A DNA stretch of 64,000 nucleotides, from positions 50,797-114,796 of IMG/VR virus record IMGVR_UViG_3300023210_000014; one strand, written 5' to 3'. Position numbers and translations under genes: made by a program. Source of the stretch: a virus (Duplodnaviria; Heunggongvirae; Uroviricota; Caudoviricetes). The stretch's first letter is position 1, and each line of letters begins with the position of its first letter. This document shows, piece by piece, positions 9,182 to 52,133 of the stretch. The notes beneath the pieces were generated by a model. It was not told the origin of the DNA. It saw only the letters and a program-made list of their open reading frames with translations, and did not search any database.

Positions 9182-9213
9182 GGTTTACATTCAACGACAA
9201 ACATGATACAATA
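9182..9213 (+). promoter_or_regulatory. conserved phage promoter copy 2 (TGG-TTTACA-N17-TACAAT)
   Basis: TTTACA at 9184-9189 and TACAAT at 9207-9212, upstream of the gp32-like gene. Confidence 0.5.
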
Positions 9214-23017: not shown

Positions 23018-23049
23018 GGTTTACATTTCACTTGAAATAGGATATAATG
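23018..23049 (+). promoter_or_regulatory. conserved phage promoter copy 3
   Basis: AAAGG-TTTACA (23020-23025) -N17- GATATAATG (TATAAT 23043-23048), upstream of the DNA polymerase gene. Confidence 0.55.
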
Positions 23050-23092
23050 AGGTCTATACGGTTATATCCTATTCTTGTCTTTAGGAGGCACA

Positions 23093-27706: not shown

Positions 27707-30165
27707 ATGATGTAAAATATCACAAATTTACCGGCAGCATGCCGATTATTTTTGTAGAGAACTTCAGCGATTTCCCAGCCACTATCGGTGCTCAAGTTGA
27801 AGACTTAGATGAAGGTATGGAATTCGATAACGGTAATTATTGTCGAACAATTGGATTTAAAAAATCCCCCCTGAAATTTATTGTATTTGAAGATGCAATG
27901 ATGAGAACCCTTTTTGGACACAGACGTAATGATGTTGTTGATGCAACCCTTGCAATGTATGTAGCTGAACAGAAATATCCAATGAATGAAAAGCTTGCAT
28001 TAAACCACGCTATAAAATTAGCTGTTGAAAATAATGCTGCCGGTGCATATCAAATGCTTAGTTCAATTTACAATCGTAAGTTCAAATCCGAAAACCCATA
28101 CCACCAGATTGCAATGCAAGAAGGCTTAATGAGTGAAGCCTCTGGTGATGCAGGTGAAGAAGCCAAAAGGAAGAATCTTGTTCATACTGGATATGGATAT
28201 TATGGTCCAAAAGAAAAAGGTGATCCAACCCATAAATCAGTAGATGATGGTAATAAATTGGAACCAATCAGTGCAGAAGATCTACAAGCATACAAAGATC
28301 GTAAAGCTGGTAAAACCCCTTCGAAGGTTCCAGATCAACCTACTCAATCAGCTGCAGCTCCTCCGGCAGAAAAAGAAACTAAGATTTTAGTTAAGAAGGA
28401 TACAGGAGAAAAAGTAACTGATCCCGAAAAGATTAAAGCAATTGTTGGAGGAAACCAACCAGCTGGGGAAGAATCTGAACCTGTTGAAGGTTTCGAACCT
28501 TATGGTGATGCTGAAACTGCATATGTTCCCGGGAAATTAAATGATGGCGATGATGAATTGTCCGATGGTGAGATCAAACAGATTGCATTGGATGGATATT
28601 ATCAGGACGATTTTAAACCGGCTCCTGGTAGTGCCACTTCTATGGTTAATGAAATTTTAAGTGGTGAAGTTCAACACATATTAGAAAATGATCCATCATT
28701 GATAAATGATCCAGATAAAATGGCACAAATATTATTTGAAATAATAGAACATAAAGGTATTTATAACGATATTGCTGGCAGTAAAACTATTTCTAAAAAA
28801 TCTAGAACATGGGGAGAACAATGGCACGGCAAATCTGAATCAGTGGTAAAATTGATGATGTTAACTGCACGCGCTGGAATCGAAAAACAACGTGATGTCC
28901 AACGTGGACTGGCCACTCTTGCTGAACAGAACAAGATGTCCGGGCCGACGAAATTGAGAACGTATTATGGCCATGAAGTTTCAATACAAAAGCAAGTTGA
29001 ATTAATTCAAAGTCTCCCCGGCCCATTCTATACCAATAAGGGTCACGAAATAAATAAAGAGGATCTGATCCATTTTATTAAGGTTTCAGGGGGAGGAGAA
29101 AATCCGAGCGATACTTCCACTATCGTTACTACGGAAGATGGCAAAGCTATGATTACATTCCATTCGGATAAAACCGCAACGAAGGATCCACAAGCAAATA
29201 CTAGAGTTTCTGCTGAATGGGATAGATCCAAACAACACATTGATAATTTAGAAGGGGTTCCAGATAGAGTAAAAACGGCAGGAAAGAAAATATTAACACT
29301 TGGCCAAGCTGCAATTGCTAAGGAAGAAGAAAAATTAAAAAATATTTCCCAGACGATGATTGAAGATTTAAAAGTTGAACAAGATCCAGTTGAGATATCT
29401 AATTTTATGAAAAATTCTAGTGGCGGAAAGGATCCAGCTAAATATTGGAAAAAAGCTGTCGGCAAACCCGGTGGAAAAGTTCATTCAAAAATCCGAAAAT
29501 ACCTACCTGGGGACAGTATTAATGTTAATGATTATACAGACGATGAATTGGCCGCGGCATTTATGGATTTTATTGGTGATCCGGATAAGGAAGGCCCTCC
29601 TACGGGAGATCAACAATCTTTAATTGATAGAACTTTACCCCATTTTGGATATGATATTTCCGCGGCACAAGGAAAGATCCGAGAACGTTCGATTAAAATT
29701 CAACAAGATCTTAGAGTTCACTTAAATAAATTGGGACATAATCTAGGTGATTATATTGAATTAAAAAATATGACTGATGCCTTACATATTGGATTAATTG
29801 ATGGAGAAAATTCAGATCATGGTGTTTCAAAATATCCTGGACTTATGAACTTAAATATGGGCGGAGTTGTTGCGGGAATAGATGAAATCCAGCATTGTTT
29901 AGGTGTAGATTCATTGGCCGATTTCGAATCTAATGTTCAAGTAGATGCTGCCGGCGATTACACTAAAAACAAACAAGGACAAACCACAGGCCAAAATGTT
30001 TTTGTTTATATTATGGTTAAAGGGAAGAAACAAAAAGTAGCAAGAAAAAGTCAAAGGTCTAAAACCGGGCCAGGGGGGAAATTGGACACCATATATTATT
30101 GGAGCGACGATGTTCAAAAGTGTTTTAAAGGCCAACAGGATATAAAAAACAAAGGAAATAAATAA
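27703..30165 (+). CDS. large hypothetical protein (820 aa) with a low-complexity Pro/Glu/Lys-rich linker
   Basis: Globular N-terminal domain, then about 120 aa of KAGKTPSKVPDQPTQSAAAPPAEKE... linker, then a long C-terminal region. No catalytic motifs recognised. Confidence 0.45.
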   Translation: MNDVKYHKFTGSMPIIFVENFSDFPATIGAQVEDLDEGMEFDNGNYCRTIGFKKSPLKFIVFEDAMMRTLFGHRRNDVVDATLAMYVAEQKYPMNEKLALNHAIKLAVENNAAGAYQMLSSIYNRKFKSENPYHQIAMQEGLMSEASGDAGEEAKRKNLVHTGYGYYGPKEKGDPTHKSVDDGNKLEPISAEDLQAYKDRKAGKTPSKVPDQPTQSAAAPPAEKETKILVKKDTGEKVTDPEKIKAIVGGNQPAGEESEPVEGFEPYGDAETAYVPGKLNDGDDELSDGEIKQIALDGYYQDDFKPAPGSATSMVNEILSGEVQHILENDPSLINDPDKMAQILFEIIEHKGIYNDIAGSKTISKKSRTWGEQWHGKSESVVKLMMLTARAGIEKQRDVQRGLATLAEQNKMSGPTKLRTYYGHEVSIQKQVELIQSLPGPFYTNKGHEINKEDLIHFIKVSGGGENPSDTSTIVTTEDGKAMITFHSDKTATKDPQANTRVSAEWDRSKQHIDNLEGVPDRVKTAGKKILTLGQAAIAKEEEKLKNISQTMIEDLKVEQDPVEISNFMKNSSGGKDPAKYWKKAVGKPGGKVHSKIRKYLPGDSINVNDYTDDELAAAFMDFIGDPDKEGPPTGDQQSLIDRTLPHFGYDISAAQGKIRERSIKIQQDLRVHLNKLGHNLGDYIELKNMTDALHIGLIDGENSDHGVSKYPGLMNLNMGGVVAGIDEIQHCLGVDSLADFESNVQVDAAGDYTKNKQGQTTGQNVFVYIMVKGKKQKVARKSQRSKTGPGGKLDTIYYWSDDVQKCFKGQQDIKNKGNK

Positions 30166-31976
30166 TGTCAGCACCAACAAAGCCAAATGTGATTGTATCA
30201 TATGGAGGTCGGTTCCAACCAGTACACATGGGACATAAGGGCGTTTATGACGCCCTAGTTAAAAAGTTTGGCAAAGCAAACGTTTATGTAACCACGTCAA
30301 ATAAGACTGACCCAAAACGTAGTCCTCTTTCATTCCAATGGAAAAGGAAATTGTTAGCGGGAATTGGAATTCCCTCTAAATTCATATTGATGGTCAAAAA
30401 TAATTACCGTATGGATGATCTTCTCAAGGCAACGGGATTCAAACCTGAAAACACCATTTGGATCACAGCTGTTGGAGAAAAAGATGGTCAACGATTGGGT
30501 GGCAAATTTTTCAAACCCTATAAAGAGGGTAAGCCATTAGAGACCTCCGATAAGTTTGGATACGTCTACACCATCCCAAACATCAAAATGGGTGGCAAAG
30601 TAATGAGTGCTACTTCAGTGAGAGATATTCTTAGAAAAGATGGAGACCTGGACAAAGAAGATTACGTGAGCCTTAAGGGCTCAACTGGAATGAATCGTGC
30701 TACTGTAGATCAAATTAGACCTATGTTCGAACATTATGAATCCCTGGGTGAAATGCTAATTGAAGGTGGCCAAGGGGGTCACATGAATCACCTTTATGAT
30801 GACCGCGATCTGAAATTCTCAGAGCTCGAACAGATTTTTGATGCTGTTTTGAAGGGTGAATTAAATCGTGAAGATGTATCTGAAAAGATAGACGGCCAAA
30901 ACCTCTTCGCTTCAATTATTAATGGACACATTCGTTTTGCTAGAAATAAGGGCAACATCAAAAATAAGGGTGCTGCCTCGATGACCATCGACGACATGGT
31001 TAAGAAGTGGAAAGATAAACCTTCAGTTCAAGAAGCATTTGTTGAAAATGGTAAAGCATTAGAGAAAGCATTGCTTCAATTGTCCAAAGAGGACCTTGAA
31101 GAAATTTTTGAGAATGGAAGAAATTGGATCAACATTGAAGTTGTTTGGGCAAAAAATGTCAACGTGATCGATTATGATGGTTCATCCATTGTAATTCACA
31201 ACCTCAACATTGTAAACGATGAGGGTATAAATTCAGGAGTTCCAGATAAACTTCAAAAGAAATTATTTGCCAAGGTGAACAAAATTAAGCAGGGAAGTAT
31301 CCCCGTGAAAACTCCCATCATGCTTACGATCAAAGCCGATAATGATTTTGCTAAAAAGTCAGCTGGATTTAAAAAGAAATTAACTGCATTCCGTCAGAAG
31401 CAAAAGCTTGGAGCAGGTAAAACTATTGGTGACTGGATGGATAAATTCTGGACACGTGAAGTTAAATTGATTGAGAAGAAATATAATCATCCAATTAAAC
31501 CTGCCATTAGAAAGAAATTAGTGAAGCGTTTGAGTGAATTTGATAAGTCTTATAAGCTTTCACAAATCAAAAAAGACGTTGAGTTTTTACCTTTCTATAA
31601 TGACTATAGAACTATGGATAAAGATGTAAATAATATCTATAAGAAAGCAATTGATCCCTTGAAGATTATTACTTTCGAAGTTGGTATTGAGGTTTTGAAG
31701 AATATCGAAACTTTCCTTACAGCTAATCCAGAAAAAACGGTTCAGAAATTGAGAGCAGATATTGCTAAAGAGATCAATGATGTTAAGGCATCAAAGAACC
31801 CAGAGAAGCTAGCAAAAATGGCACCACTCCTTAAACGAATTCAACAACTTGGTGGATTCAAAAATATTGTTCCAACTGAAGGAATCGTTTTCAAATGGAA
31901 TGGTAAGCTATATAAATTTGTTGGCCTATTCGCAGACATTAACCAGATTTTAGGACTGATTAGATATGACAAATAA
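30165..31976 (+). CDS. HxGH nucleotidyltransferase (NMNAT/cytidylyltransferase-like) N-terminal domain fused to a large C-terminal region with ligase-like KxDG motif
   Basis: N-terminal YGGRFQPVHMGH is the class-I-aaRS-like HxGH nucleotidyltransferase signature. Downstream EKIDGQNLF resembles adenylation motif I of ATP-dependent ligases. C-terminal EGIVFKWNGKLYKFVG resembles ligase motifs IV/V, but the spacing is non-canonical. Confidence 0.4.
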   Translation: MSAPTKPNVIVSYGGRFQPVHMGHKGVYDALVKKFGKANVYVTTSNKTDPKRSPLSFQWKRKLLAGIGIPSKFILMVKNNYRMDDLLKATGFKPENTIWITAVGEKDGQRLGGKFFKPYKEGKPLETSDKFGYVYTIPNIKMGGKVMSATSVRDILRKDGDLDKEDYVSLKGSTGMNRATVDQIRPMFEHYESLGEMLIEGGQGGHMNHLYDDRDLKFSELEQIFDAVLKGELNREDVSEKIDGQNLFASIINGHIRFARNKGNIKNKGAASMTIDDMVKKWKDKPSVQEAFVENGKALEKALLQLSKEDLEEIFENGRNWINIEVVWAKNVNVIDYDGSSIVIHNLNIVNDEGINSGVPDKLQKKLFAKVNKIKQGSIPVKTPIMLTIKADNDFAKKSAGFKKKLTAFRQKQKLGAGKTIGDWMDKFWTREVKLIEKKYNHPIKPAIRKKLVKRLSEFDKSYKLSQIKKDVEFLPFYNDYRTMDKDVNNIYKKAIDPLKIITFEVGIEVLKNIETFLTANPEKTVQKLRADIAKEINDVKASKNPEKLAKMAPLLKRIQQLGGFKNIVPTEGIVFKWNGKLYKFVGLFADINQILGLIRYDK

Positions 31977-33144: not shown

Positions 33145-33172
33145 CGGGAACATTAATTTGTTCCCGTTTTTT
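33145..33172 (+). terminator. rho-independent terminator (CGGGAAC-loop-GTTCCCG + T6)
   Basis: 7-bp stem at 33145-33151/33160-33166, then TTTTTT. Confidence 0.6.
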
Positions 33173-33203
33173 GTTTACATTCCCATGTGAATAGTGTATA
33201 ATG
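33171..33203 (+). promoter_or_regulatory. conserved phage promoter copy 4
   Basis: TTTACA at 33174-33179, N17, GTATAATG (TATAAT at 33197-33202). Directly downstream of a terminator. Confidence 0.55.
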
Positions 33204-33223
33204 ATTATATGAAAGGAAGTTAT

Positions 33224-34366
33224 ATGAAAAAAATTAAAATTCTAGTGATCCCCTCGGATCAATTTGGAGTAGGCTATTACCGGTTATTGTGGCCATTCAA
33301 AATGATTCAGAAAAACCATTCTGATGAATTCGATATCACAATAAAATACCATCAAGAAATTACAATTGAAGACACCTTAAGTTATGATATTGTTCACTTT
33401 AATCGATCGTTTCCAAATAAAAATCACGTTGAAATGATAAACGCATTCAAAGCTAATGGATGCAAAGTTGTTATGGATATCGATGATCTTTGGAACCTTC
33501 CTAAGGACCATCCACTTTATGCTTTGGTTAAGAGTCAAAATGCAGATAAGATCACATTCGAATGTCTAAAAGCATCAGAATATATCACAGCTACAACAGA
33601 TCATTTTGCTGATTACCTTCGAACTTTTAAAGATAATGTAATTGTGTTACCTAATTCGATTGATTTTGATCAAACCATGTGGCAAAATAAACGTGAACCC
33701 AGTGACAAACTTAGAATTGGTTGGATTGGGGGTTCATCACATGAAGCAGATTTGAAAAAACTCGCTGGAGTGTTTAATCGTCTTTACAATGATCCGGAAC
33801 TAAAGGATAAATTTGAAATTGTAATGTGTGGATTTGATACACGTGGCACCATAACAACAACCCATCCAACAACTCGTAAAGAAACAACTCGGAAGATTAG
33901 ACCCGAAGAATCAATTTGGGTAAAATTTGAAGAGATCTTTGATGATTATGGCCGTGCACCTGAAGGCGCATACATTCGTAGAAAGACTCTTCCTATTAAT
34001 CGCTATGGTGAACACTACAATTTCATCGATGTGGCATTAGGTCCACTGGTTGAGTCTGAATTCAACGCTTGTAAATCAGAATTGAAAGCTATTGAAGCTG
34101 GAGCAATGGGTTGCGCATTTATTGGATCTGACGTTCCATCATATAATAAATTGATTGAACATGGTGAATCTGGAATTCTCATCCCGGCGAAAAAAGATCA
34201 TAAATTGTGGCACAAGCATATTAAGAAAATGATTTTAGACCGAGAATACACTCAAACATTAGCCGACAATTTACATGAAAAAGTATTCAACTATTTCAAC
34301 CTCAAAACAATCACCGAACAACGAGTTCAATTTTACAAGGAGATTACAGAATGCAAAAACAAATGA
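33224..34366 (+). CDS. glycosyltransferase (GT1/GT4-like fold)
   Basis: Start at the ATG with AAAGGAAG upstream. C-terminal E-x7-E-type region ELKAIEAGAMGCAFIGSDVPSYNKLIEHGESGILI is typical of retaining GT-B glycosyltransferases. Confidence 0.55.
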   Translation: MKKIKILVIPSDQFGVGYYRLLWPFKMIQKNHSDEFDITIKYHQEITIEDTLSYDIVHFNRSFPNKNHVEMINAFKANGCKVVMDIDDLWNLPKDHPLYALVKSQNADKITFECLKASEYITATTDHFADYLRTFKDNVIVLPNSIDFDQTMWQNKREPSDKLRIGWIGGSSHEADLKKLAGVFNRLYNDPELKDKFEIVMCGFDTRGTITTTHPTTRKETTRKIRPEESIWVKFEEIFDDYGRAPEGAYIRRKTLPINRYGEHYNFIDVALGPLVESEFNACKSELKAIEAGAMGCAFIGSDVPSYNKLIEHGESGILIPAKKDHKLWHKHIKKMILDREYTQTLADNLHEKVFNYFNLKTITEQRVQFYKEITECKNK

Positions 34367-34971
34367 GATATGACGACAAGAAGCTTTTAGCCCTATTCGA
34401 AAAGTTTATGGAGATCACTCGACAGATTGATGACCCTCACAATCGAAAAGCAATTGAACGTTTAATGGATGATGTGGGAGAACGCTTCTTTGAGGCACCA
34501 GCATCTGGAAAATTGGAATGGCATAATTGCTTCGCTGGAGGCCTTTGCGCTCATTCAATGAACGTATACCACATTCTCAAGGACCTGTGTGCTAAATTTC
34601 ACAAGGACGTAAATCCAGACGATATCATTATTGCTGCTTTATTCCATGATCTTGGTAAAGCAGGTTATAACGGAACCCCATATTACGTTCCTAAGAATTC
34701 AAAGTGGCATCTGGAGAAGATGGGATTGGTCTATGATATCAATCAAGAACTTAATTGGATGCCACATGCACAAAGATCCGTTCTGGTTTTAAATGAATAT
34801 GAAGTTAATTTGAGCGAAATGGTTACAGTCGGCATACTTATACATGACGGACAATACGTAGAAGCCAACAAATCTTATGCGATGAAAGAAGGGATGTTTC
34901 CTTTATTGGTTTCTATGGCAGATCGCCTTGCAACAGAAATTGAGAAAAACAAATGGGAATCAATACAGTAA
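34351..34971 (+). CDS. HD-domain phosphohydrolase
   Basis: H...HD motif (HSMNVYHIL ... ALFHDLGK) plus a downstream His/Asp (ILIHDGQY). Confidence 0.65.
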   Translation: MQKQMRYDDKKLLALFEKFMEITRQIDDPHNRKAIERLMDDVGERFFEAPASGKLEWHNCFAGGLCAHSMNVYHILKDLCAKFHKDVNPDDIIIAALFHDLGKAGYNGTPYYVPKNSKWHLEKMGLVYDINQELNWMPHAQRSVLVLNEYEVNLSEMVTVGILIHDGQYVEANKSYAMKEGMFPLLVSMADRLATEIEKNKWESIQ

Positions 34972-35582
34972 CTGGTTTAATTTATCTTGTAACTAACAAT
35001 ATTAATGGTAAACAATATATTGGTCAAACAGTTGATTTGAAAGCAAGAAAAGCAAATCATATTTCTCGTTCAAAGAAAGCTAAAATTGGATTTTGTAGAG
35101 CAATTTCTAAATATGGGTCAAACAACTTTAATTGGACAATATTGGAATCTAATATTCTTCGTGAAAAATTAAATGAACGTGAGATCTTTTGGATAAAACA
35201 ATATAAAACATTTAATAATGGTTATAATTTAACATTAGGAGGGAATAGCAATACTACTCCGGATTGTAAATCTTGTTCATTTGGTGATTTAAATTTTGAC
35301 TCTCAAACTTTAGCCGCCAAATATTTCAAGGTAAGTAAATCCCAAATATCATATTGGATAAAAATGGGATATAATCATCCTCCCACTAAAGACGAAATAA
35401 GCTCGAGAATTTCCAAAAATCATGCTGATTTTTCTGGATCTAAAAATGGGAGAGCTAAACCGGTAAGTGTAAATGGAATTGAATATGGCTATATTTCAGA
35501 AGCAGCTAAAGCTTTAAATGTTCAACGAAGTACTATTAGGGCTTGGATTAAAATAAACAAAAACGATGCACAGTGGATATAG
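34953..35582 (+). CDS. GIY-YIG homing endonuclease
   Basis: GLIYLVTNNINGKQYIGQT... N-terminal GIY-YIG module with a conserved Arg and a NUMOD-like C-terminus. Inserted between metabolic genes. Confidence 0.75.
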   Translation: MGINTVTGLIYLVTNNINGKQYIGQTVDLKARKANHISRSKKAKIGFCRAISKYGSNNFNWTILESNILREKLNEREIFWIKQYKTFNNGYNLTLGGNSNTTPDCKSCSFGDLNFDSQTLAAKYFKVSKSQISYWIKMGYNHPPTKDEISSRISKNHADFSGSKNGRAKPVSVNGIEYGYISEAAKALNVQRSTIRAWIKINKNDAQWI

Positions 35583-35638
35583 GGACGGAGCTCCTATAAA
35601 CCCCCTGAAAAAGTGTAGGTTTAGCGGTCAGATTCAAT

Positions 35639-36286
35639 TTGGCCGCTTCCTACGTACTAACATATGACTGGACTAAAATGAACATTAGAGAAGCTAAAAT
35701 AACCCTTGAACATCCTCGCGGATTCACCATGGATCGTCTTGAGAAAAAGTATACAGCAATTGACACACTTCGTCATGGTTGTAAATTAATAGAGGATTTA
35801 GGATACAAATATTGGGTATCCGCTGGAACCTTATTGGGAATTCACAGAGATAATCAATTCATCCCTCATGACACTGACATTGATATTGAAATCTACGTAG
35901 GCCCCAACACAAAAATCAATGTGAGAGAAATTTTGCAGAATATGAAGGCGATAGGTTTTGACCTTATTCGAATTCAAATGCTCGATTCAGCTTATCCAAC
36001 ACAATTAGCATTTATGAATGTGAGCAACAATGTGATTTTTGATGTGTATTGGTATTATGATGATCCATTTTATGATCATCGGATAATCAATCGAACTGTT
36101 GATGGGATTCTTTGGTATCCAAAAGAGAAAATACTCGAGTTGGAAACCTTAACCTTCAAGGATCATGATTTCATCGTACCTGACCCAGATTGGTACTGCG
36201 AGTTCCGATATGGAGTGGATTGGAAAACTCCAGCAAAGGAAAAAGGCGAATGGCAAATGCAAGCAACAAACCTCGAAAGGACATAA
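35639..36286 (+). CDS. LicD-family phosphotransferase (LicD/fukutin-like)
   Basis: YWVSAGTLLGIHRDNQFIPHDTDIDIEI matches the LicD signature (WLDGGTLLGAVR...IPWDDDIDI). The start is uncertain (TTG at 35639 or ATG at 35678). Confidence 0.7.
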   Translation: MAASYVLTYDWTKMNIREAKITLEHPRGFTMDRLEKKYTAIDTLRHGCKLIEDLGYKYWVSAGTLLGIHRDNQFIPHDTDIDIEIYVGPNTKINVREILQNMKAIGFDLIRIQMLDSAYPTQLAFMNVSNNVIFDVYWYYDDPFYDHRIINRTVDGILWYPKEKILELETLTFKDHDFIVPDPDWYCEFRYGVDWKTPAKEKGEWQMQATNLERT

Positions 36287-36287
36287 C

Positions 36288-36830
36288 GTGATTTATATTG
36301 TATCTGGTTATAAACGTAGTGGAACTTCATTAATGATGAAAATATTAGATCACTTGGGTTTAGAATTGGATTATGATGTTAAATTCAGTTGCGACGTAAT
36401 TAAAAATGGAAATTTCAAACAAAAATACGTCTTTGAAATTAAAGAAATCGTTTATGGTCAACCTTTTGAATTAGAAAAATTTGAGGGTAAAGTTATTAAG
36501 GTTTTAGCTAGCGGAGTATTAAGCTCACAGAATAATTCAAAAAACATTAAAATGATTTATATGAGTCGGGATAAGAATGAAATATTAAACTCAATGAGAA
36601 AATACAAGAACGAATCAGATATGAAAAGAGAAAAAAATATTATTTCTAGAATTCCGAAGAATAAAATATTCAAGGTCTTCAATCCTTTGGAGGTTAATTT
36701 TATTGATTTAATCAATGCTCCCAAAGAAATAATAATGGACGTGATTGATTATTTGGATTTAAAACCAACCACTTTACAAATCGAATGTGCCATAAGTGAG
36801 GTTAACCCAGAAATGAATCATTTCTCATGA
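36288..36830 (+). CDS. sulfotransferase-like P-loop protein
   Basis: GTG start after GAAAGGA. SGYKRSGTSLMMKIL resembles the 5'-PSB motif. YMSRDKNEILNSM resembles the 3'-PB motif (RDxxDvxvS). The ORF track's longer version overlaps LicD by 120 nt. Confidence 0.4.
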   Translation: MIYIVSGYKRSGTSLMMKILDHLGLELDYDVKFSCDVIKNGNFKQKYVFEIKEIVYGQPFELEKFEGKVIKVLASGVLSSQNNSKNIKMIYMSRDKNEILNSMRKYKNESDMKREKNIISRIPKNKIFKVFNPLEVNFIDLINAPKEIIMDVIDYLDLKPTTLQIECAISEVNPEMNHFS

Positions 36831-37219
36831 GAAAAGTCTTAACATATGGCACATTTGATTTATTTCATTATGGGCATTTGAATATGTTGCAAACAGCTGC
36901 AGCCTTTGGTGATGAATTGATTGTTGGTATTTCTACCGATGAATTTAATGAAGAGAAAAACAAAAAAGCTATTATACCTTATCGCCAACGTATGCAAATA
37001 GTGTCAAATATTCAGTGTGTTGACAGAGTCTTCCCTGAATGGTCTTGGGAGCAAAAGATTGCTGATCTTGAGAGATTCAAAATTGACACCTTTATAATTG
37101 GGGAGGATTGGAAAGGCAAATTTGATTTTCTTCATCCATATTGCGAGGTAATTTACCTGGCTCGGACTGATGGAATCTCAACTACTGAAATTCGGAATAG
37201 AATTTTGTCAGGTGAATAA
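36827..37219 (+). CDS. cytidylyltransferase (glycerol-3-phosphate cytidylyltransferase TagD-like)
   Basis: LTYGTFDLFHYGHLNMLQ (HxGH) and RTDGISTTEIR (ISTT motif), 130 aa. Classic TagD/CCT family. Confidence 0.8.
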   Translation: MRKVLTYGTFDLFHYGHLNMLQTAAAFGDELIVGISTDEFNEEKNKKAIIPYRQRMQIVSNIQCVDRVFPEWSWEQKIADLERFKIDTFIIGEDWKGKFDFLHPYCEVIYLARTDGISTTEIRNRILSGE

Positions 37220-37251
37220 GGTTTACATTTCTCATTGTTTATGGTATAATG
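37220..37251 (+). promoter_or_regulatory. conserved phage promoter copy 5
   Basis: AAGG-TTTACA (37222-37227) -N17- GGTATAATG (TATAAT 37245-37250). Confidence 0.55.
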
Positions 37252-37267: not shown

Positions 37268-37786
37268 ATGCAAAAGATACTAACGACTGGTTATGCTTTG
37301 ACCCGTCAACTAGAGAAAGAGTATTCAGTTTTACAGGATCGACCAACCAAACTGAATCTTCATTATCCCGAACACCAAATGATAATCAAAAGATTCATTG
37401 GTCAACTTAATGAAGAATTGGTAGAATGGTATACGGCTGAAACAGACGAAGAACGAATTGATGAAGCAGCTGACATATTGAATTTTGCTATGAGTATTAT
37501 GCTTATGTTGGACTGTGAAATATATGAATTGGACGAGGATGATTATCCCTTCAGCGGCATGTTAAAATTATTCATTTTGTGGAATGATGTTTCCCATAAA
37601 CTTAAGAATCGACCATGGAAAAAGACCCAAGTGTTAACTTGTTTAGAAACGATTGAGCCTATTCTATTTGAAGCGTTCAATAAAACTATTGGGTTTCTTC
37701 TTCAACATCACACAGAAGATGAAATTGTTAATGCGATCGAATCAAAGCACAAGAAGAACCTCTTCCGCTTAAAATCTAACTATTAG
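37268..37786 (+). CDS. MazG-like / all-alpha NTP pyrophosphohydrolase (putative)
   Basis: EELVEWYTAETDEERIDEAADILNFAMSI fits the MazG/HisE ExxE...ExxD metal-binding helix pattern. Assignment is tentative. Confidence 0.4.
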   Translation: MQKILTTGYALTRQLEKEYSVLQDRPTKLNLHYPEHQMIIKRFIGQLNEELVEWYTAETDEERIDEAADILNFAMSIMLMLDCEIYELDEDDYPFSGMLKLFILWNDVSHKLKNRPWKKTQVLTCLETIEPILFEAFNKTIGFLLQHHTEDEIVNAIESKHKKNLFRLKSNY

Positions 37787-37793
37787 GAGAACC

Positions 37794-38477
37794 ATGAGAA
37801 TCTTTATGAACCTGGGCGAAGCTTACCCGGAGATCAAACGCGATCTAAATAAGTTTGGAGTAATTGTTCACCCGAACACAATGCAAGATAAATGGGTTGC
37901 AGACGATGACGATTACATGACAAAAGAAACCCAACTCTACACCTTCTGTATTCTTGATACGACAGATCATTTGGATTATGCGAAAGATCCTGAATGGTGT
38001 GCAGCTGAATTTGCTGAACGAATTGATACTTCACAAGAAGTTCTCAACCCTGGTTACGCATATAAAATTCGTGAGGTGTGGGAAGAATTTGTTCACGATG
38101 GAAAATTCGGATATACATACCACGATCGTATGGCATTCCAAGTCCAAAAGATCATTGATGAATTGAAACGTAATCTTGACAGTCGTCAATTGATCGTTCA
38201 AATCTTTGATTATAATCAGGACAATCAAAACATCGGCGGAGCTAAGATTAGGATTCCATGCTCGATGTATTACCAATTGATGTACCGAGAAGGCAAACTG
38301 GATATCATTTACAATATGAGAAGCTGTGACTTTAGTGAACACTTCACCAATGACGTTTCCCTTGCAATGATGCTACAACATCACGTTGCAAAAGAAGTTG
38401 GAATCGAACCCGGTAAGATGTTCTACAGTGCAGGCAGTTTCCACATCTATAAGAAAGACTGGGAAATCCTAGCGTAA
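37794..38477 (+). CDS. thymidylate-synthase-fold pyrimidine hydroxymethylase/methylase homolog (ThyA / dCMP-HMase / dUMP-HMase family)
   Basis: IPCSMYYQLMYREGKLDIIYNMRSCDFSEHFTNDVSLAMMLQHHVAKEVGIEPGKMFYSAGSFHIYKKDW aligns by eye to ThyA PCH..QFYV...GKLSCQLYQRSxD...PFNIASYALLTxMIAQ...G.F.HxxGDAHIY. The nucleophile Cys is present in P-C-S. It is 227 aa, shorter than ThyA. Confidence 0.55.
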   Translation: MRIFMNLGEAYPEIKRDLNKFGVIVHPNTMQDKWVADDDDYMTKETQLYTFCILDTTDHLDYAKDPEWCAAEFAERIDTSQEVLNPGYAYKIREVWEEFVHDGKFGYTYHDRMAFQVQKIIDELKRNLDSRQLIVQIFDYNQDNQNIGGAKIRIPCSMYYQLMYREGKLDIIYNMRSCDFSEHFTNDVSLAMMLQHHVAKEVGIEPGKMFYSAGSFHIYKKDWEILA

Positions 38478-38485
38478 GGAGATTT

Positions 38486-39841
38486 ATGTGCGGCATCGCT
38501 GTTAGAAACTTAAAGCGCCAAACTTATTATACAGATGAAATGGGCCATCGTGGCCTGCTAACACACCGGAAGGAATTTGGATGTTTAGAACTCATACATG
38601 AACATCTACCAATTCAAGTTTACGACTCAGCATATCCAATCATTCAATCTGAACGATATGATGTTTTGTTCAATGGAGAAATCTTCGAACATGATGAGAC
38701 AGACGATATTGTTTTTCTTACTAAGATGTTCAGGGATGAGTCTTTCCGTCACGTGTTTGATATTGTTGAGGAACTTAAAAACTTAGATGGATTTTATTCT
38801 TTTATCGTAATCGATAAACAAGAGAATAAAGTCTATGCTTTTACAGACCCACTTGGAAAGAAGCAATTATATTATAATCCTGGATTTGGCATTGCTTCAG
38901 AGATCAGAGGGGTTTCAGATAAGAATTCAAAACTCGATCGTACCTATTTTGGTACGATTCTTAAACATGGTTACACTGCTGATAATCGTACACCTTTACA
39001 AAATGTGAAACGATTGCTTCCGAATACAGTTTACACTTTCGATGTTGAATTGACCCTACATGCCATGATGGAAAATTATTATGATTTCTTTGCTCCAATT
39101 GTTGGGGTACCATTTCAGAGTATGACCTCAAATCAATTCATATATGACACAATGGAAAAATCAGTTAAGAATAGATTGATTGGCCATCATAGAGTTGCAT
39201 TACTTCTCTCCGGTGGACTTGATAGCGCTATTATTCATCATCATTTAAAATGTGCAAAGAATGTTTCAGTTTACACTGTGAACAATGGCGAAGATTATCA
39301 ATACGCAAAAGCATTGGCACCAGAAGCTCAGTTGGTTAATTTCACTCAATTTGGTGATGACCTCAAGATGGCAATTCATGCTCAAGAAATGCCAATGGAT
39401 CTTGGGAGTATGATTCCTCAATTCAAACTTTGCTCAGCAATAAATGAACGCGTGATAATGACTGGAGATGGTGCAGATGAAATCTTCGGAGGATATCGTA
39501 GGATGGCAGAATATGATGCACAAGTCTCAGACATATTTGATGAGTTGAGATATTATCATCTTGTTCGTTTGGATCGCATGTCAATGTGGTTTACTAAGGA
39601 ATTGAGAAGTCCATTCTTAAACTTGGACTTGATTAAATTTGCGTTGACCCTCCCTCACGAGGATAGAATTGATAAGAAGTTCCTTCGTAATGTATATCGA
39701 GGGATTCTCCCAATGAATATTGTCAACCGACCAAAAGAACCTCTCAAAATTGACAGGGTTAAAAAAGACCCTTATGAATATAGAAAAGAATTAATCACTG
39801 AATACCTTAATCAAAGGAAGTTAAATGGCCAAGGAAAGTAA
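38486..39841 (+). CDS. asparagine synthetase-like glutamine amidotransferase (class II GATase + PP-loop ATP pyrophosphatase)
   Basis: N-terminal MCGIA (Cys2 nucleophile), NGEIFEH resembling NGEIYN, and the PP-loop LLSGGLDS. Confidence 0.75.
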   Translation: MCGIAVRNLKRQTYYTDEMGHRGLLTHRKEFGCLELIHEHLPIQVYDSAYPIIQSERYDVLFNGEIFEHDETDDIVFLTKMFRDESFRHVFDIVEELKNLDGFYSFIVIDKQENKVYAFTDPLGKKQLYYNPGFGIASEIRGVSDKNSKLDRTYFGTILKHGYTADNRTPLQNVKRLLPNTVYTFDVELTLHAMMENYYDFFAPIVGVPFQSMTSNQFIYDTMEKSVKNRLIGHHRVALLLSGGLDSAIIHHHLKCAKNVSVYTVNNGEDYQYAKALAPEAQLVNFTQFGDDLKMAIHAQEMPMDLGSMIPQFKLCSAINERVIMTGDGADEIFGGYRRMAEYDAQVSDIFDELRYYHLVRLDRMSMWFTKELRSPFLNLDLIKFALTLPHEDRIDKKFLRNVYRGILPMNIVNRPKEPLKIDRVKKDPYEYRKELITEYLNQRKLNGQGK

Positions 39842-40736
39842 ACACATAAACAAAATTGGAGCACAAGATGTTCTTCAATTTAGAACTGAAAAGCCAGAAG
39901 ATTATCACTGCACGTGTGATTATTGCACGGTCAATTTCAAGGGCGAAGTCTTCGGTGTGGACGAGGGTAAATATTATTCTCAACGATGCCGCAATCACTA
40001 TTACCCAAAGGACATCAATCATGAATTTCCACATCTCGACGTCGGACACTGGCCCGGGTATCGGTTTGCTGTTCAAAACTACACTGAAGTCGGTGATATT
40101 GTATTTGATCCTACTGTTGGAAGCGGAACTGCAATTGCAGAAGCAGAAAATAACCATCGAATTGGAATCGGTGTTGAACTCGAATTCCCCGAAGCATGCA
40201 GATTCTTCTGTAACAGCAGAGGAACAGTAATTGAGGGCGATACAATGCAGGTTGATCCTGATGAATTCTTAGAGAAGGAATCAATTCAACTATTGGTGAA
40301 TGGAACTCCATATCCGACCATTGGGTCAAAAACATCAGATGCACCAGAACGTAAGAATTTGAGTGATCGAGATGCTAAGATGAATAACACTCTGGACGAC
40401 TATGAACATCCAGATAACCTTGGTAAACTAACACTCAAAAATTACTATCCTGTGATCACGAAGATGTATATGAAATACCTTCCTTACGTTAAACCTGGTG
40501 GCTACATTGTCCTTATTATCAAAGACATGGTAATGAAGAAAGAACCATATCTCCTCCACAAGTATTTGTGTGATCACATTCTGAATGCAACTGATGAACT
40601 CCAATATGATAGTTGCTTCATTCACCGTCACACTCCATCGACAATGTTTATGAACACATATCCTAAGCGATTCCCTGAAGTTAATATTCCTCTTTATCAA
40701 ACAGCAATTGTTTTGAGGAAGAAGGTTTCATCTTGA
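39825..40736 (+). CDS. SAM-dependent methyltransferase-like protein (amino-methyltransferase-like motif I)
   Basis: DIVFDPTVGSGTAIAEAE resembles motif I (DPFxGSGTT) of N6/N4 DNA methyltransferases. There is no clean (D/N)PPY motif (closest is NGTPYP). Confidence 0.3.
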   Translation: MAKESKHINKIGAQDVLQFRTEKPEDYHCTCDYCTVNFKGEVFGVDEGKYYSQRCRNHYYPKDINHEFPHLDVGHWPGYRFAVQNYTEVGDIVFDPTVGSGTAIAEAENNHRIGIGVELEFPEACRFFCNSRGTVIEGDTMQVDPDEFLEKESIQLLVNGTPYPTIGSKTSDAPERKNLSDRDAKMNNTLDDYEHPDNLGKLTLKNYYPVITKMYMKYLPYVKPGGYIVLIIKDMVMKKEPYLLHKYLCDHILNATDELQYDSCFIHRHTPSTMFMNTYPKRFPEVNIPLYQTAIVLRKKVSS

Positions 40737-41290
40737 TCTCAAAAGCAATTATAGCTCATGAGATTGGCCATGCAATATCAGCGTTTGCACAGGACTCTGG
40801 ATATATTCCTACATTGATTGAATTGAGTGAAAGTAAAAACTGTTTAGCTGCATGTTATATGGATGACTTCAAAATGGCTAAACCTGGTCCATATGGCAAA
40901 ACAAAAGGAATCTGTGATCTTGGTGGCATATTTGGTGAATTAATTTATCAAGGTTGGTGGAATCCTTGGGGAGCAAGATTAGACTTAGATAACTTTATAA
41001 GTTCAAATCCTAAGTTGGTTGAATTGGACAATTGGTTATGGGTTGACACTGAAGAAGGCTCATTTCATTATTTGAATTCATATCCAACCACAAAAGAGCG
41101 TAGAGACGTTAAGGTTGACTCACATTCAACATTTAGAAATACTCCATATATTTGGGAAGCATACTGTGACTTTTGTGATCGAATAGACAAAGAGGAATTC
41201 CTCCAAGCTGTTAATGAAGTTTACAAGAATAAAACAGAATCAATTGAGGGCAAAGATATGGCAGCTCTTGGAAAGAGAATAATATTATGA
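40733..41290 (+). CDS. HExxH motif protein (putative metallohydrolase)
   Basis: IIAHEIGHAIS near the N-terminus. Otherwise unknown. Confidence 0.3.
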   Translation: MISKAIIAHEIGHAISAFAQDSGYIPTLIELSESKNCLAACYMDDFKMAKPGPYGKTKGICDLGGIFGELIYQGWWNPWGARLDLDNFISSNPKLVELDNWLWVDTEEGSFHYLNSYPTTKERRDVKVDSHSTFRNTPYIWEAYCDFCDRIDKEEFLQAVNEVYKNKTESIEGKDMAALGKRIIL

Positions 41291-41940
41291 AAATAGCTAG
41301 AACGAGTTGGAGTTATGAAAGTGAATTTGTTGGAATGGATTTATTGCGGCACATTGAAAGAGCGGGTCGTACATGTTATAAATCTGAAGACAAAATAACA
41401 TATGACAGTGCAATGAAGTTTGCAAAGATGATAACTCACACAGTAAAACATGAGTCAGTATTGGAACACGCTTCAATCTCTGTTAGGATTATCTGTGATC
41501 GTGGAATCTCTCATGAAATTGTAAGACATCGTCTTGGTGCATACTCGCAGGAATCTACACGGTATTGCAATTACAATAAAGAGAAGTTTGGCAATGAACT
41601 CACTGTGATTTATCCAGATCATCTGGACGATAAAGATGAGCAAAGTCAAATGGTTTGGAAGATGGCTATGATGTCACTCGAACAATCATATTTCCTTCTT
41701 TTGGAAAAGGGTTGGACACCTCAAGAAGCAAGAGGAATCTTGCCAACCGAACTAAAAACTGAAATGGTTGTTACATATAACCTCAGGCAATGGAGACACT
41801 TCTTCAAGATGCGGTGCAGCAAATATGCTCACCCACAATTAAGAGCGGTCACAATTCCAATGCTTGAATCTTTCAAGGATGACATTCCAGTTATTTTTGA
41901 TGACTTTGAAATAGACAAGGAGAAGATGTGTTTGAAATAA
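41287..41940 (+). CDS. thyX: flavin-dependent thymidylate synthase ThyX
   Basis: ThyX signature RHRLGAYSQESTRY (RHRxxSxxxxSxR), plus upstream conserved His/Arg (LRHIERAGRTCY, EHASISV). Confidence 0.85.
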   Translation: MKIARTSWSYESEFVGMDLLRHIERAGRTCYKSEDKITYDSAMKFAKMITHTVKHESVLEHASISVRIICDRGISHEIVRHRLGAYSQESTRYCNYNKEKFGNELTVIYPDHLDDKDEQSQMVWKMAMMSLEQSYFLLLEKGWTPQEARGILPTELKTEMVVTYNLRQWRHFFKMRCSKYAHPQLRAVTIPMLESFKDDIPVIFDDFEIDKEKMCLK

Positions 41941-52081: not shown

Positions 52082-52087
52082 ACAAAT

Positions 52088-52105
52088 GGGGAGCTTCGGC
52101 TCCCC
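52088..52105 (+). terminator. GC hairpin GGGGAGC-ttcg-GCTCCCC after the GT2 gene
   Basis: Perfect 7-bp stem with UUCG loop. Followed by A/T-rich sequence but no clean T-run. Confidence 0.3.
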
Positions 52106-52133
52106 TATATTAATATACACTGAAAGTTACACC

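Follow-up and report, generated by a model that had tools for sequence, protein, structure and literature searches.

Six plus-strand genes (33224–37219) in the 64-kb window, the whole stretch of phage DNA analysed here, encode a glycosyltransferase (GT), an HD-domain phosphohydrolase, a GIY-YIG endonuclease, a LicD-family phosphotransferase, a sulfotransferase-like protein and a TagD-like cytidylyltransferase. Pfam and PHROG matches confirmed the initial annotation's grouping of these families in one unit. Its longest-ORF gene starts were replaced by the source's own gene calls, which place the real starts of the GT, LicD and sulfotransferase genes at 33224, 35678 and 36288. An intrinsic-terminator-like site (33145–33176, plus strand; CGGGAACATTAATTTGTTCCCG then TTTTTTGTTT), comprising a hairpin (33145–33166; 8 pairs, 5 GC) and a T-run, would close the upstream unit. 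Directly downstream is a sigma-70-like promoter copy (33174–33202, plus strand; TTTACA-17-TATAAT), and the promoter previously proposed to drive the GT-to-TagD unit holds as a sequence feature, with 11/12 matches. This motif (≤1 mismatch) occurs in 10 copies in the window against 1.03 expected, including one at 23020, upstream of the DNA polymerase gene, and one at 37222–37250 (plus strand), upstream of the next operon. The latter has no preceding terminator; terminator-like sites were absent between 33202 and 37268, and none lies between TagD and the following MazG-like gene. Gene spacing supports a single GT-to-TagD transcription unit, with overlaps of 16 nt (GT/HD), 19 nt (HD/GIY-YIG) and 4 nt (sulfotransferase/TagD), and a 1-nt gap between LicD and sulfotransferase. 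The unit is demonstrably composite, combining a GT-HD backbone pair, the mobile GIY-YIG gene and a LicD-sulfotransferase-TagD accessory block.

The GT (33224–34366, plus strand) is a conserved GT-B/GT4-like backbone enzyme (PF00534, 35.2 bits, cut-off 26.4; phrog_7162, E=8e-50), for which PDB matches (6kih, PglA, BshA) cover the C-terminal sugar-nucleotide-binding half only. More than 425 relatives of it were found in IMG/VR, and the GT-HD backbone is present in >400 uncultured phage contigs. Its conserved partner, the HD phosphohydrolase (34351–34971, plus strand; PF01966, 31.1 bits; phrog_5889), lies 3′ of the GT in all five close relatives (36–65% identity) and in 18 of 80 distant ones. GT and HD are the ancestral pair; LicD, sulfotransferase and TagD are missing from all 80 distant GT relatives, which speaks against the single coherent pathway originally envisaged, as does the YhaM-like nature of the HD protein. 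The best PDB match of the latter is the HD domain of YhaM/Cbf1 (YhaM-type nucleases; E=0.004), and homologues occur on their own in replication modules of other phages, among them Flavobacterium phage immuto and Dp-1. Its substrates are probably nucleotides or nucleic acid rather than sugars, probably placing it outside phospho-alcohol chemistry, and it is possibly a dCTP-clearing enzyme in relatives without MazG. The free-standing GIY-YIG homing endonuclease gene (34953–35582, plus strand; PF01541 plus an I-TevI-type DNA-binding domain; phrog_314, E=2e-30) is a selfish mobile insert, with no homologue at the equivalent site in the five relatives examined (L232, L234–L237).

The LicD-family protein (35678–36286, plus strand; PF04991, 31.1 bits) has a nucleotidyltransferase fold and a DTDID motif. 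It aligns with FKRP (6kaj) across the DxD region (E=1e-4), and residues G50, T51, L53, G54, R57, D65, D67, D69 and D122 are invariant among 16 homologues. The top 13 Foldseek matches to its AF2 model (pLDDT 91.9) were all FKRP, a CDP-ribitol phosphotransferase (E=2e-8). The enzyme is predicted to take a phospho-alcohol off a CDP-alcohol and attach it to a hydroxyl. The adjoining compact (180 aa) PAPS-type sulfotransferase-like protein (36288–36830, plus strand; PF00685, 29.6 bits) is shorter than canonical enzymes; the earlier assignment as a sulfotransferase-like P-loop protein is good at fold level, and the protein probably adds sulfate. Catalytic motifs are intact in both proteins. TagD (36827–37219, plus strand; PF01467, E=2e-24) matches PDB entries 1coz and 2b7l over its full length (E=1.2e-44), and scores 158.4 bits with TIGR01518 (cut-off 165.4) versus 58 bits with the heptose adenylyltransferase model. 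Its identity as a CTP:glycerol-3-phosphate cytidylyltransferase, with CDP-glycerol as the predicted product, is well supported at the sequence level. Together with the FKRP-like LicD model, this upholds the TagD-plus-LicD logic first suggested for the locus.

A base-modification operon had been proposed downstream; it does follow directly, but with its own promoter copy at 37222–37250. Its leading gene encodes a MazG/dUTPase_2-like NTP pyrophosphatase and candidate dCTPase (37268–37786, plus strand; Pfam matches sub-threshold only, PF08761 at 17.3 bits and PF01503 at 17.1 bits; phrog_173, E=2e-5), which adjoins a thymidylate-synthase (TS) homologue in nine other loci. The TS homologue of the window (37794–38477, plus strand; PF00303, 65.5 bits) has the catalytic Cys (IPCS), the cytosine-type Asp at the position of E. 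coli ThyA N177, and D169 (diagnostic residues from PMC13326640, section 28). These residues predict it to be the source of a 5-hydroxymethyl acceptor. PDB searches placed it closer to canonical TS than to known hydroxymethylases, and the group that it adds could be a hydroxymethyl, a methyl or a different one. The rest of the operon (38486–41940, plus strand) provides context for the cassette and encodes an AsnB-like amidotransferase, an N6_N4-MTase-like protein, a 185-aa protein and ThyX; these genes are kept with the TS homologue in L040/L126 (39–70% identity) and partly in L143 and L149. Further along, two backbone glycosyltransferase candidates, a GT-B followed by a GT2-like protein (50236–52081, plus strand; PDB 8xsg (AmGGT), E=3e-6), may be part of the same glycosylation system as the cassette. 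The GT2-like protein is 27% identical to the GT2 of L013.

Five syntenic relatives (L232/L040, L234, L235, L236 and L237), with GTs 46–54% identical to that of the window, share the gene order PolB, dCMP deaminase, lysin, then GT, HD, a variable slot, and a TS homologue and/or ThyX. The slot lies directly 3′ of GT-HD in all five. In L234 it is empty, with only 287 nt (one 59-aa ORF) between GT-HD and a 291-aa TS homologue. CMP and dCMP hydroxymethylases (E=1e-23 and 1e-13) head the PDB hits of this TS homologue and outrank canonical TS. The other four carry unrelated sugar pathways (GT2, PfkB, RmlC, epimerases, radical SAM, aminotransferases, HAD-NTP-transferase). The L232/L040 slot comprises 14 or more sugar genes, with the MazG-TS-AsnB-MT-ThyX operon of the window behind it, and L235, L236 and L237 contribute three more, mutually different sugar and GT cassettes. 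Behind the slot, a TS homologue is found in the window, L232/L040, L234 and L235, and ThyX only in L236; this covers the loci that extend far enough, L237 ending within its cassette. Relative to L234, the LicD-sulfotransferase-TagD and MazG-TS-AsnB-MT blocks have been gained together in the window. LicD-sulfotransferase-TagD is one filling of a hypervariable glycan slot. GT-to-TS adjacency represents few independent events, because the five relatives share ancestry.

Since the cassette sits between a conserved GT and cytosine-modifying genes, in a sugar-pathway slot, decoration of phage DNA is the most likely explanation. We put slightly better than even confidence in a T4-like hydroxymethylcytosine (hmC) pathway in which the sugar on the DNA would additionally receive glycerol-phosphate and sulfate, the acceptor being argued wholly from gene context. 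To judge from its residues, the Asp177-type TS homologue, together with the MazG-like pyrophosphatase, would yield 5-hydroxymethyl-dCMP for incorporation into phage DNA, with dTMP coming from ThyX. The context of the GT suggests that it would transfer a sugar from a host NDP-sugar to the hydroxymethyl group in DNA. TagD would convert CTP and sn-glycerol-3-phosphate to CDP-glycerol, the putative donor from which LicD would pass glycerol-phosphate to a sugar hydroxyl, or to hmC directly. The compact sulfotransferase, assigned by fold, would add sulfate from host PAPS. The outcome would be an anionic, teichoic-acid-like base decoration, one among many glycan variants of the slot, whose diversity plausibly reflects diversifying selection by modification-dependent host nucleases.

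DNA decoration had been one of two readings offered initially. Comparison now lends it support, through the slot behind GT-HD and the TS homologue and/or ThyX that follow, while the acceptor still comes from context. The GT-to-TagD unit also shares its promoter class with the nucleotide operon and the gene for DNA polymerase, and every cassette protein is soluble. Several observations count against it. The LicD protein is acidic (pI 5.25) and the GT neutral (pI 6.9), the 64-kb window yielded no dNMP kinase, and sequence comparison gave no significant match between the GT and RB69 gp3, the proposed DNA arabinosyltransferase of that phage. A TS homologue was nearby in 0 of 23 LicD loci and, within 10 kb, in 0 of 80 distant GT loci, which also lack slot content. 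The base may be put to a different use by the AsnB-like and MTase-like neighbours, which are conserved, and packaging DNA with added negative charge carries a cost. Precedents exist for parts of the scheme. Genes for DNA hypermodification in phages usually lie in clusters, GT-B genes often adjoin TS homologues, and a cytidylyltransferase plus GT-B cluster leads to heptosyl-5hmC (bioRxiv 10.1101/2023.12.21.572611). RB69 and DLP3 DNA is glycosylated by GT4-like enzymes (PMC13326640), and SP-15 DNA carries a non-backbone phosphodiester, with a TagF-like gene in the candidate cluster (PMC5977210). The heptosyl-5hmC and SP-15 cases make the claim that this is not a described pathway only partly true. 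Charged glycerol-phosphate and sulfate groups on DNA would be new if confirmed.

Glycosylation of virion proteins was missing from the initial annotation. Here the conserved GTs would act in the cytoplasm on a protein of the capsid, tail or baseplate, and LicD/TagD and the sulfotransferase would put glycerol-phosphate and sulfate on the protein glycan, giving a variable particle coat. We regard this as unlikely, though the strongest of the rivals. In six loci of SU10-like podophages, genes for LicD, (SDR), a TagD-like enzyme and a window-family GT stand directly 3′ of the major capsid gene and before tail genes. No TS homologue lies within 10 kb of them, nor in the 29 kb that were read of a 42-kb contig, and this arrangement supports a virion target. 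So do the solubility of all cassette enzymes and the backbone GTs at 50236–52081, which lie just upstream of baseplate genes and are conserved in 52–63 of 80 distant GT-family loci. A surface-exposed structure would fit a hypervariable glycan slot equally well, and a precedent cited in PMC12619734 is that of mycobacteriophages whose capsid and tail tube are glycosylated by GTs with genes next to the structural ones. However, the window and all five close relatives place GT-HD and the slot in a replication and nucleotide-metabolism module rather than by capsid or tail genes. The slot's neighbour is a cytosine-type TS homologue and/or ThyX, TS co-occurs with slot content, the promoter class is that of the DNA polymerase gene, and no candidate acceptor protein was found.

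Remodelling of the host envelope is less probable still. Sugar, glycerol-phosphate and sulfate would be added to lipid-linked precursors (LPS O-unit, capsule or teichoic-like polymer), blocking superinfection or preventing progeny adsorption to debris. TagD, LicD-family and GT4 enzymes have their canonical cellular roles here, and superinfection exclusion is compatible with early or middle expression. The sulfotransferase family is widespread in genomes of Bacteroidota, Verrucomicrobiota and Planctomycetota, and one homologue (34% identity) adjoins a Wzx-type flippase gene on a short 2.4-kb metagenomic contig; yet LicD or TagD neighbours were absent at 80 bacterial sulfotransferase loci. The teichoic-acid version proposed earlier gained no specific support. 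No cassette protein has a membrane segment, and the genes scanned included no TagB/TagF-type primase/polymerase match (Pfam, PHROG, NCBIfam) and no recognised flippase, ligase or export gene. There is no indication of a Gram-positive host, the HD protein matching best to one from a Flavobacterium phage, and over the 64 kb read the phage seems to be strictly lytic. Envelope remodelling also leaves the conserved position beside base-modification genes unexplained. We give least credence to accretion in a recombination hotspot, with no common pathway and with sulfotransferase and LicD inactive or acting on unrelated small molecules. The composite unit, the occurrence of HD homologues in many unrelated contexts, and a sulfotransferase truncated relative to canonical enzymes, with no catalytic base recognised, would fit such a history. 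Against it stand the intact catalytic motifs, the translational coupling of LicD, sulfotransferase and TagD, and the only known product of TagD, which is the donor type used by LicD-family enzymes. LicD is moreover found alongside a TagD-like enzyme in 10 independent phage loci, and the GT joins them in six of these.

Six tightly packed genes on the + strand occupy 33.1–37.3 kb of the window, with starts taken from the source's own gene calls. They encode a GT4-like glycosyltransferase (GT; 33224–34366; PF00534; phrog_7162, E=8e-50), an HD-domain protein (34351–34971; PF01966), a GIY-YIG endonuclease (34953–35582), a LicD-family protein (35678–36286; PF04991), a sulfotransferase-like protein (36288–36830; PF00685) and a TagD-like cytidylyltransferase (36827–37219; PF01467, E=2e-24). 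A terminator-like hairpin (33145–33166) and, directly 3' of it, the promoter motif TTTACA-17-TATAAT (33174–33202) precede the GT gene. Allowing one mismatch, this motif occurs ten times in the window against 1.03 expected, and copies also precede the DNA polymerase gene (23020) and the next operon (37222). Neither the unit nor the interval from TagD to the MazG-like gene contains a terminator-like site. LicD and sulfotransferase genes are 1 nt apart and sulfotransferase and TagD genes overlap by 4 nt, indicating translational coupling. Family matches, promoter and terminator layout, and gene coupling thus confirm the six-gene unit and its promoter as initially annotated, with corrected start codons. 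The proposed mid-unit insertion of the GIY-YIG gene was likewise borne out. Its product combines PF01541 (39.2 bits) with an I-TevI-type DNA-binding domain (29.4 bits), as in free-standing homing endonucleases, and no such gene lies at the corresponding site in five syntenic relatives. A second GIY-YIG gene (11633–12223), with a NUMOD3 motif, lies in the replication module and is 37% identical to the first across the catalytic domain. The repeated promoter-like motif, written out as GTTTACATT-N14-TGrTATAAT, lies on the + strand at 9184, 20988, 23020, 33174, 37222, 42234, 43454 and 47862; these copies are intergenic, ahead of replication, glycan and nucleotide genes.

The closer GT homologues (46–54% identity) sit in uncultured phages that are fully syntenic with the window. 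Their common order is PolB, dCMP deaminase, lysin, an 820-aa and a 603-aa protein, GT, HD, a variable slot, a TS homologue, a 185-aa protein and ThyX. Slot content was different in every genome compared. A TS homologue and/or ThyX followed the slot wherever the locus reached that far: a TS homologue lies downstream of GT-HD in the window, in L232/L040 (records of one phage), in L234 and in L235, and ThyX only in L236. Given syntenic relatives whose slots differ, with the GT on the left and a TS homologue and/or ThyX afterwards, the LicD-sulfotransferase-TagD block is best read, on gene order, as one allele of a hypervariable glycan-tailoring slot.

The slot is empty in L234, the closest relative (proteins 54–93% identical), where only 287 nt with one 59-aa ORF separate GT-HD from the TS gene and the locus holds no MazG, AsnB, MTase, GIY-YIG or tailoring genes. 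The slot of L232 encodes a 281-aa protein, a GT2, a 221-aa protein, a PfkB kinase, an RmlC-like epimerase, a methyltransferase, an epimerase/dehydratase and a B12 radical-SAM protein, followed by a 326-aa protein, DJ-1, a cupin, E1 alpha/beta, a DegT aminotransferase and an FkbM methyltransferase. The MazG-TS-AsnB-MTase-ThyX operon comes next, as in the window (TS 83% identical). From its PfkB, RmlC, epimerase/dehydratase, B12 radical-SAM, TPP-dependent E1 alpha/beta and DegT proteins and two methyltransferases, the product of the L232/L040 slot looks like a branched, methylated amino-deoxy sugar. This long sugar pathway (L232 11994–21140) is also represented by L040 1–9169 plus L044 460–3682. 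The L235 slot encodes a CAP59-type transferase, an epimerase, DegT and a GT4, that of L236 two GT2 proteins and a HAD plus NTP-transferase fusion, and that of L237 a GT2, two FkbM proteins, PfkB, RmlC, an epimerase, a radical-SAM protein and a transketolase, the L237 locus ending inside the cassette. An IMPDH-like gene and then the TS homologue follow the L235 slot, whereas an IMPDH-like gene, the 185-aa protein and ThyX, with no TS homologue recognised, follow that of L236. The IMPDH-like gene directly precedes the TS homologue in L235 (19508–20659), and in L236 (18197–19315) two small genes separate it from ThyX downstream. L237 additionally carries, between GT and HD, a 68-aa gene (11109–11315) of the Acb2/Tad1-hairpin family, a family of anti-defence nucleotide sponges.

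The GT and HD genes have a wider distribution. GT-family relatives were collected with a four-sequence GT alignment, yielding >425 in IMG/VR. Among the best 80 (33–39% identity), a trimeric dUTPase gene lies 0.5–1.5 kb downstream in 72, with an HD homologue between GT and dUTPase in 18. Between 52 and 63 of these loci run on with NT5C, GT-B, GT2-like and 257-aa genes, the same genes that are found at 49.6–52.9 kb in the window. Slot content, including LicD, TagD and sulfotransferase, and a nearby TS homologue were all missing from these 80. Since the distant GT loci lack them, GT-HD is an old backbone pair. In the window, the block at 50236–52859 comprises the GT-B gene (PDB 8xsg AmGGT, E=3e-6), the GT2-like gene (sub-threshold in Pfam, with 27% identity to the L013 GT2) and the 257-aa gene, just upstream of baseplate genes. 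Conservation of this GT-B/GT2-like block across distant GT loci brings the number of glycosyltransferase candidates in the backbone to at least three.

The GT itself scored 35.2 bits on PF00534 (Glycos_transf_1; cut-off 26.4), and its PDB matches (6kih, PglA and BshA) cover only the C-terminal NDP-sugar-binding half, residues 287–375. BLASTP gave no significant similarity to the DNA glycosyltransferase candidate RB69 gp3, the one enzyme compared directly. No cultured-phage relative exceeds 32% identity. Phapecoctavirus GT pairs match at 25–28%, and no published account of what they do was found. Among solved structures, the HD protein comes closest to the HD domain of YhaM/Cbf1, an exonuclease (E=0.004). 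Its homologues also occur by themselves in the replication modules of several phages, Flavobacterium phage immuto and Dp-1 among them. A role as the sugar-phosphate phosphatase of the pathway is therefore not supported.

Downstream of the unit lie genes for a MazG/dUTPase_2-like protein (sub-threshold), the TS homologue, an AsnB-like amidotransferase, an N6_N4-MTase-like protein, the 185-aa protein and ThyX. The TS homologue has the catalytic Cys, retains D169 and carries Asp at the position of E. coli ThyA N177; in the alignment, its IPCS pairs with PCH of ThyA and its RSCDFSEHFTND with RSCDVFLGLPFN, and alignment to PDB TS chains agrees. By the residue rules for substrate and product of TS homologues compiled in PMC13326640, Asp at N177 with D169 kept favours a cytosine nucleotide as substrate and speaks against a 5-hydroxycytosine synthase, an identity ruled out by the retained D169. 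With cytosine-type residues and ThyX available for dTMP, dCMP hydroxymethylase is the most economical reading of this putative enzyme. In a PDB search, canonical TS (E=1e-9) ranked ahead of MilA (E=4e-6), and T4 gp42 was not among the 60 matches listed. The TS homologue of L234 (291 aa), which is not orthologous to that of the window, also has Asp at the N177 position; in the PDB it matches MilA (E=1e-23) and the T4 dCMP hydroxymethylase gp42 (E=1e-13) best. That of L235, as far as its N-terminal part can be read, shares 33% identity with the L234 protein and resembles T4 gp42. Two barely related TS homologues (20% identity) occupy the same place beside GT-HD. The linkage of a GT to a putative hydroxyl-creating enzyme, as expected of a DNA glycosyltransferase, is shared by the window, L232/L040, L234 and L235 and absent from the best 80 distant relatives. 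Because the five syntenic genomes are related, this linkage represents few independent events.

The AsnB-like and N6_N4-MTase-like genes (window 38486–40736) also accompany an Asp177 TS homologue in two distant phage loci, L143 (10833–12242) and L149 (617–2798), where no glycosyltransferase is nearby. This suggests an extra step on the modified cytosine, and the two gene products may use the modified base differently. Searching viral contigs revealed no relatives of the AsnB-like protein. The 185-aa protein (40733–41290), directly upstream of ThyX, has no family match and an HExxH-like motif, AHEIGHA, visible by eye. It comes after the TS homologue wherever one is present and is 67%, 39% and 34% identical to its counterparts in L234, L040 and L236, respectively.

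Within the slot allele of the window, the cytidylyltransferase matched glycerol-3-phosphate cytidylyltransferase (PDB 1coz/2b7l) end to end (residues 1–126, E=1.2e-44), with HxGH (FHYGH) and RTxGISTT (RTDGISTT) kept and the KKA lysines aligned. Its TIGR01518 score of 158.4 bits falls narrowly under the 165.4 equivalog cut-off, and the next best specific model, rfaE domain II (heptose-1-phosphate adenylyltransferase), reached 58 bits. We consider the protein a predicted TagD orthologue in all but the curated threshold. The full-length match, intact motifs and model scores make CDP-glycerol its likely product. The gap between 158 and 58 bits rules out a heptose-1-phosphate adenylyltransferase, the identity suggested by the PHROG name and by contig 53 of Pyle et al.

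The LicD protein scored 31.1 bits on PF04991 (gathering score 22.6), the match being confined to residues 57–85 of the longer ORF, and resembles FKRP in the PDB around the DxD motif. Its GTLLG..R / DTDID / D122 set (G50, T51, L53, G54, R57, D65, D67, D69 and D122) is invariant in 16 homologues. An AF2 model (pLDDT 91.9) returned FKRP as its 13 best Foldseek matches (E=2e-8, TM 0.57–0.59). LicD and TagD-like genes are adjacent in ten phage loci. The initial annotation had invoked the bacterial logic of TagD plus LicD. TagD identity and the LicD fold and motifs uphold that proposal as far as the enzymes go. From its coupling to TagD, LicD would use a CDP-alcohol donor and a glycan hydroxyl acceptor. 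The sulfotransferase-like protein (180 aa, few close relatives) has a sulfotransferase fold with the 5'-phosphosulfate loop (KRSGTSLMM) and 3'-phosphate motif (MSRD..S), and would presumably be PAPS-dependent. It is far shorter than canonical enzymes and no catalytic base was identified in it. No cassette protein has a membrane segment. Among cultured phages, tblastn matched neither LicD nor the sulfotransferase. Members of the sulfotransferase family occur widely among bacteria, including Bacteroidota, Verrucomicrobiota and Planctomycetota, yet none of 80 bacterial loci placed it beside LicD or TagD, leaving no bacterial donor locus for the whole block among them. One 34%-identical homologue adjoins a Wzx-type flippase gene.

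LicD relatives were found in six SU10-like podophage loci (L005–L007 and L017–L019), in the order terminase, portal, major capsid, two small genes, LicD, (SDR), TagD-like, a GT of the window's family and tail genes. The LicD plus TagD-like pair is kept in four further phage loci. In all 23 LicD loci, the surrounding 10 kb is free of TS homologues, MazG and ThyX, and none of these was seen in one podophage contig extended to 29 of 42 kb. The SU10-like cassette is a candidate virion-glycosylation system. It lies directly 3' of the major capsid gene (L005 10001–12866, L007 8645–14229 and L017–L019), and in L007 also holds a methyltransferase, an epimerase and a GT2.

Several features recall known systems. 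In T4, gp56 dCTPase, gp42 dCMP hydroxymethylase and alpha/beta-glucosyltransferases produce glucosylated hydroxymethylcytosine. The window similarly combines a cytosine-type TS homologue, candidate dCTPase, dCMP deaminase, ThyX and a GT-B in an early/replication region, and the hydroxymethylase-class TS of L234 lies directly beside GT-HD. In contrast to T4, the window GT is GT4-like, there are additional AsnB-like and MTase-like genes, a dNMP kinase was not seen in the window, and the TagD, LicD and sulfotransferase tailoring cassette has no T4 counterpart. CDP-alcohol phosphotransfer operates in teichoic acid synthesis with TagD, in phosphocholine transfer by LicD and in ribitol-phosphate transfer by fukutin/FKRP. 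The window shares with these a cytidylyltransferase that would form the CDP-alcohol and a LicD-family protein, matching FKRP in DxD motif and fold, that would transfer it to a glycan hydroxyl. It differs in lacking a recognised lipid carrier, polymerase and export machinery, in its location in a phage replication module, and in a LicD reduced to a minimal 202-aa catalytic domain, whose pairing with CDP-glycerol is our proposal. To our knowledge, Bacillus phage SP-15 is the only phage in whose DNA a modified base bears a non-backbone phosphodiester. Its DNA carries glucosyl- and phosphoglucuronate-dihydroxypentyluracil, and its candidate cluster includes teichoic-acid-type enzymes, among them a CDP-glycerol glycerophosphotransferase homologue, and a GT, with hypothesised gene roles (PMC5977210). 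The proposed phosphodiester and the enzyme set are thus similar, whereas SP-15 has a uracil base, a TagF-type transferase, no sulfotransferase and a Gram-positive host, against cytosine and a LicD-type transferase in the window.

Hypermodification pathways are usually clustered, with GT-B genes often beside TS homologues and accompanied by sugar-activation genes including cytidylyltransferases; heptosyl-5hmC is made by a small cytidylyltransferase-fold enzyme plus a GT-B from one cluster (Pyle et al., bioRxiv 10.1101/2023.12.21.572611). RB69/DLP3 have arabinosyl-5-hydroxycytosine clusters, and GT4-like folds are proposed, and partly shown, to act on DNA (PMC13326640). As in these systems, the window clusters a putative base-hydroxylating enzyme, at least one GT and sugar-activation genes, and glycans vary among related phages. 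It departs from them in that the cytidylyltransferase is of the TagD (CDP-glycerol) rather than heptose-1-phosphate type, and the D169N change that marks 5-hydroxycytosine synthases is absent from the TS homologue. Pyle et al. mention neither LicD nor sulfotransferase, and none of the DNA-hypermodification papers compared describes a DNA-glycan cluster with either. The view that this is not a described pathway therefore needs narrowing: glycan clusters beside TS homologues are known, while those papers describe none with a LicD-family phosphotransferase or sulfotransferase.

Because the layout matches the described hypermodification clusters (Pyle et al.; RB69/DLP3; SP-15), we rank first, with slightly better than even confidence, a role of the unit in adding glycerol-phosphate and sulfate to the glycosyl-hydroxymethylcytosine of phage DNA. 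A more specific version is tentative and falls somewhat short of even, since both tailoring enzymes must also act as proposed. Here, glycosylated 5-hydroxymethylcytosine would be esterified with glycerol-phosphate (from CDP-glycerol, by LicD) and sulfate to give a teichoic-acid-like polyanionic decoration, the slot serving an uncultured aquatic myovirus clade as an O-antigen-like DNA-glycan diversification locus. Glycosylation of virion proteins gains genuine support from the podophage GT-LicD-TagD triad after the capsid gene, where no TS homologue was seen, and from the other backbone GTs that abut the baseplate module. Mycobacteriophages, according to the part of PMC12619734 considered, also use phage-encoded cytoplasmic GTs to decorate the phage's own components, and the podophage relatives of the cassette likewise lie directly 3' of the major capsid gene. 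The same part mentions no phospho-alcohol or sulfate tailoring of mycobacteriophage virion glycans. The window cassette, however, lies in the nucleotide-metabolism region outside the structural module, and we regard virion glycosylation as rather unlikely.

Remodelling of the host envelope, the canonical role of these enzyme families, appears less probable still. It leaves the conserved gene position unexplained, and no membrane, polymerase or export components accompany the cassette. In particular, the wall teichoic acid pathway suggested in the initial annotation gained no specific support: among the genes scanned against Pfam, PHROG and NCBIfam, no family match was obtained for a TagB/TagF-type glycerophosphotransferase, a lipid-linked primer or a TagGH exporter, and the cassette proteins lack membrane segments. 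That the unit genes share no common pathway is the least probable of these explanations, given their translational coupling and the repeated pairing of LicD with TagD-like genes.

The gene families themselves are commonplace, and glycan clusters of such architecture beside TS homologues are already known. The swap-slot architecture beside a fixed GT and putative hydroxymethylase is a clear and testable find. If DNA is the acceptor, a phosphodiester-linked polyol and a sulfate ester would be two new groups among natural DNA modifications, and phosphotransferases of teichoic-acid/dystroglycan type (LicD/FKRP fold) would prove recruitable to nucleic acid. Related phages would then swap whole sugar pathways beside a fixed glycosyltransferase and cytosine hydroxymethylase, making the slot the DNA equivalent of O-antigen diversification, with modification-dependent restriction as the presumed driving force; the system would also supply new enzymes for hmC labelling. 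If the virion is decorated instead, aquatic myoviruses and podoviruses would join mycobacteriophages as phages with glycosylated particles, and their glycans would bear charged tailoring groups. Under either reading, the comparative layout narrows the question to a few expression experiments.

The phage derives from metagenomes (Logan SRR7615657, JGI 3300023112). Megablast found no cultured-phage nucleotide match to the window, and sensitive blastn matched only TagD-like fragments. The window carries a T4-like replication set (gp32-like, RecA-like, DnaB-like, FEN, RNR, PolB and dUTPase), with baseplate genes further on, and its PolB shares only ~26% identity with cyanomyovirus polymerases. As a clue to DNA binding, net enzyme charge was uninformative. 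The 603-aa basic protein (30165–31976; pI 9.6) carries a cytidylyltransferase-like HxGH domain at its N terminus (PF01467, E=6e-5), and a KxDG nucleotidyl-transferase/ligase motif can be made out in it by eye. The protein had no match in L236 or L237 and is 41–73% identical in L232, L234 and L235, always a few genes upstream of GT-HD. The full family B polymerase (23075–25534) coexists with a 302-aa protein (7867–8775) in which a family A polymerase domain is represented by its C-terminal portion alone.
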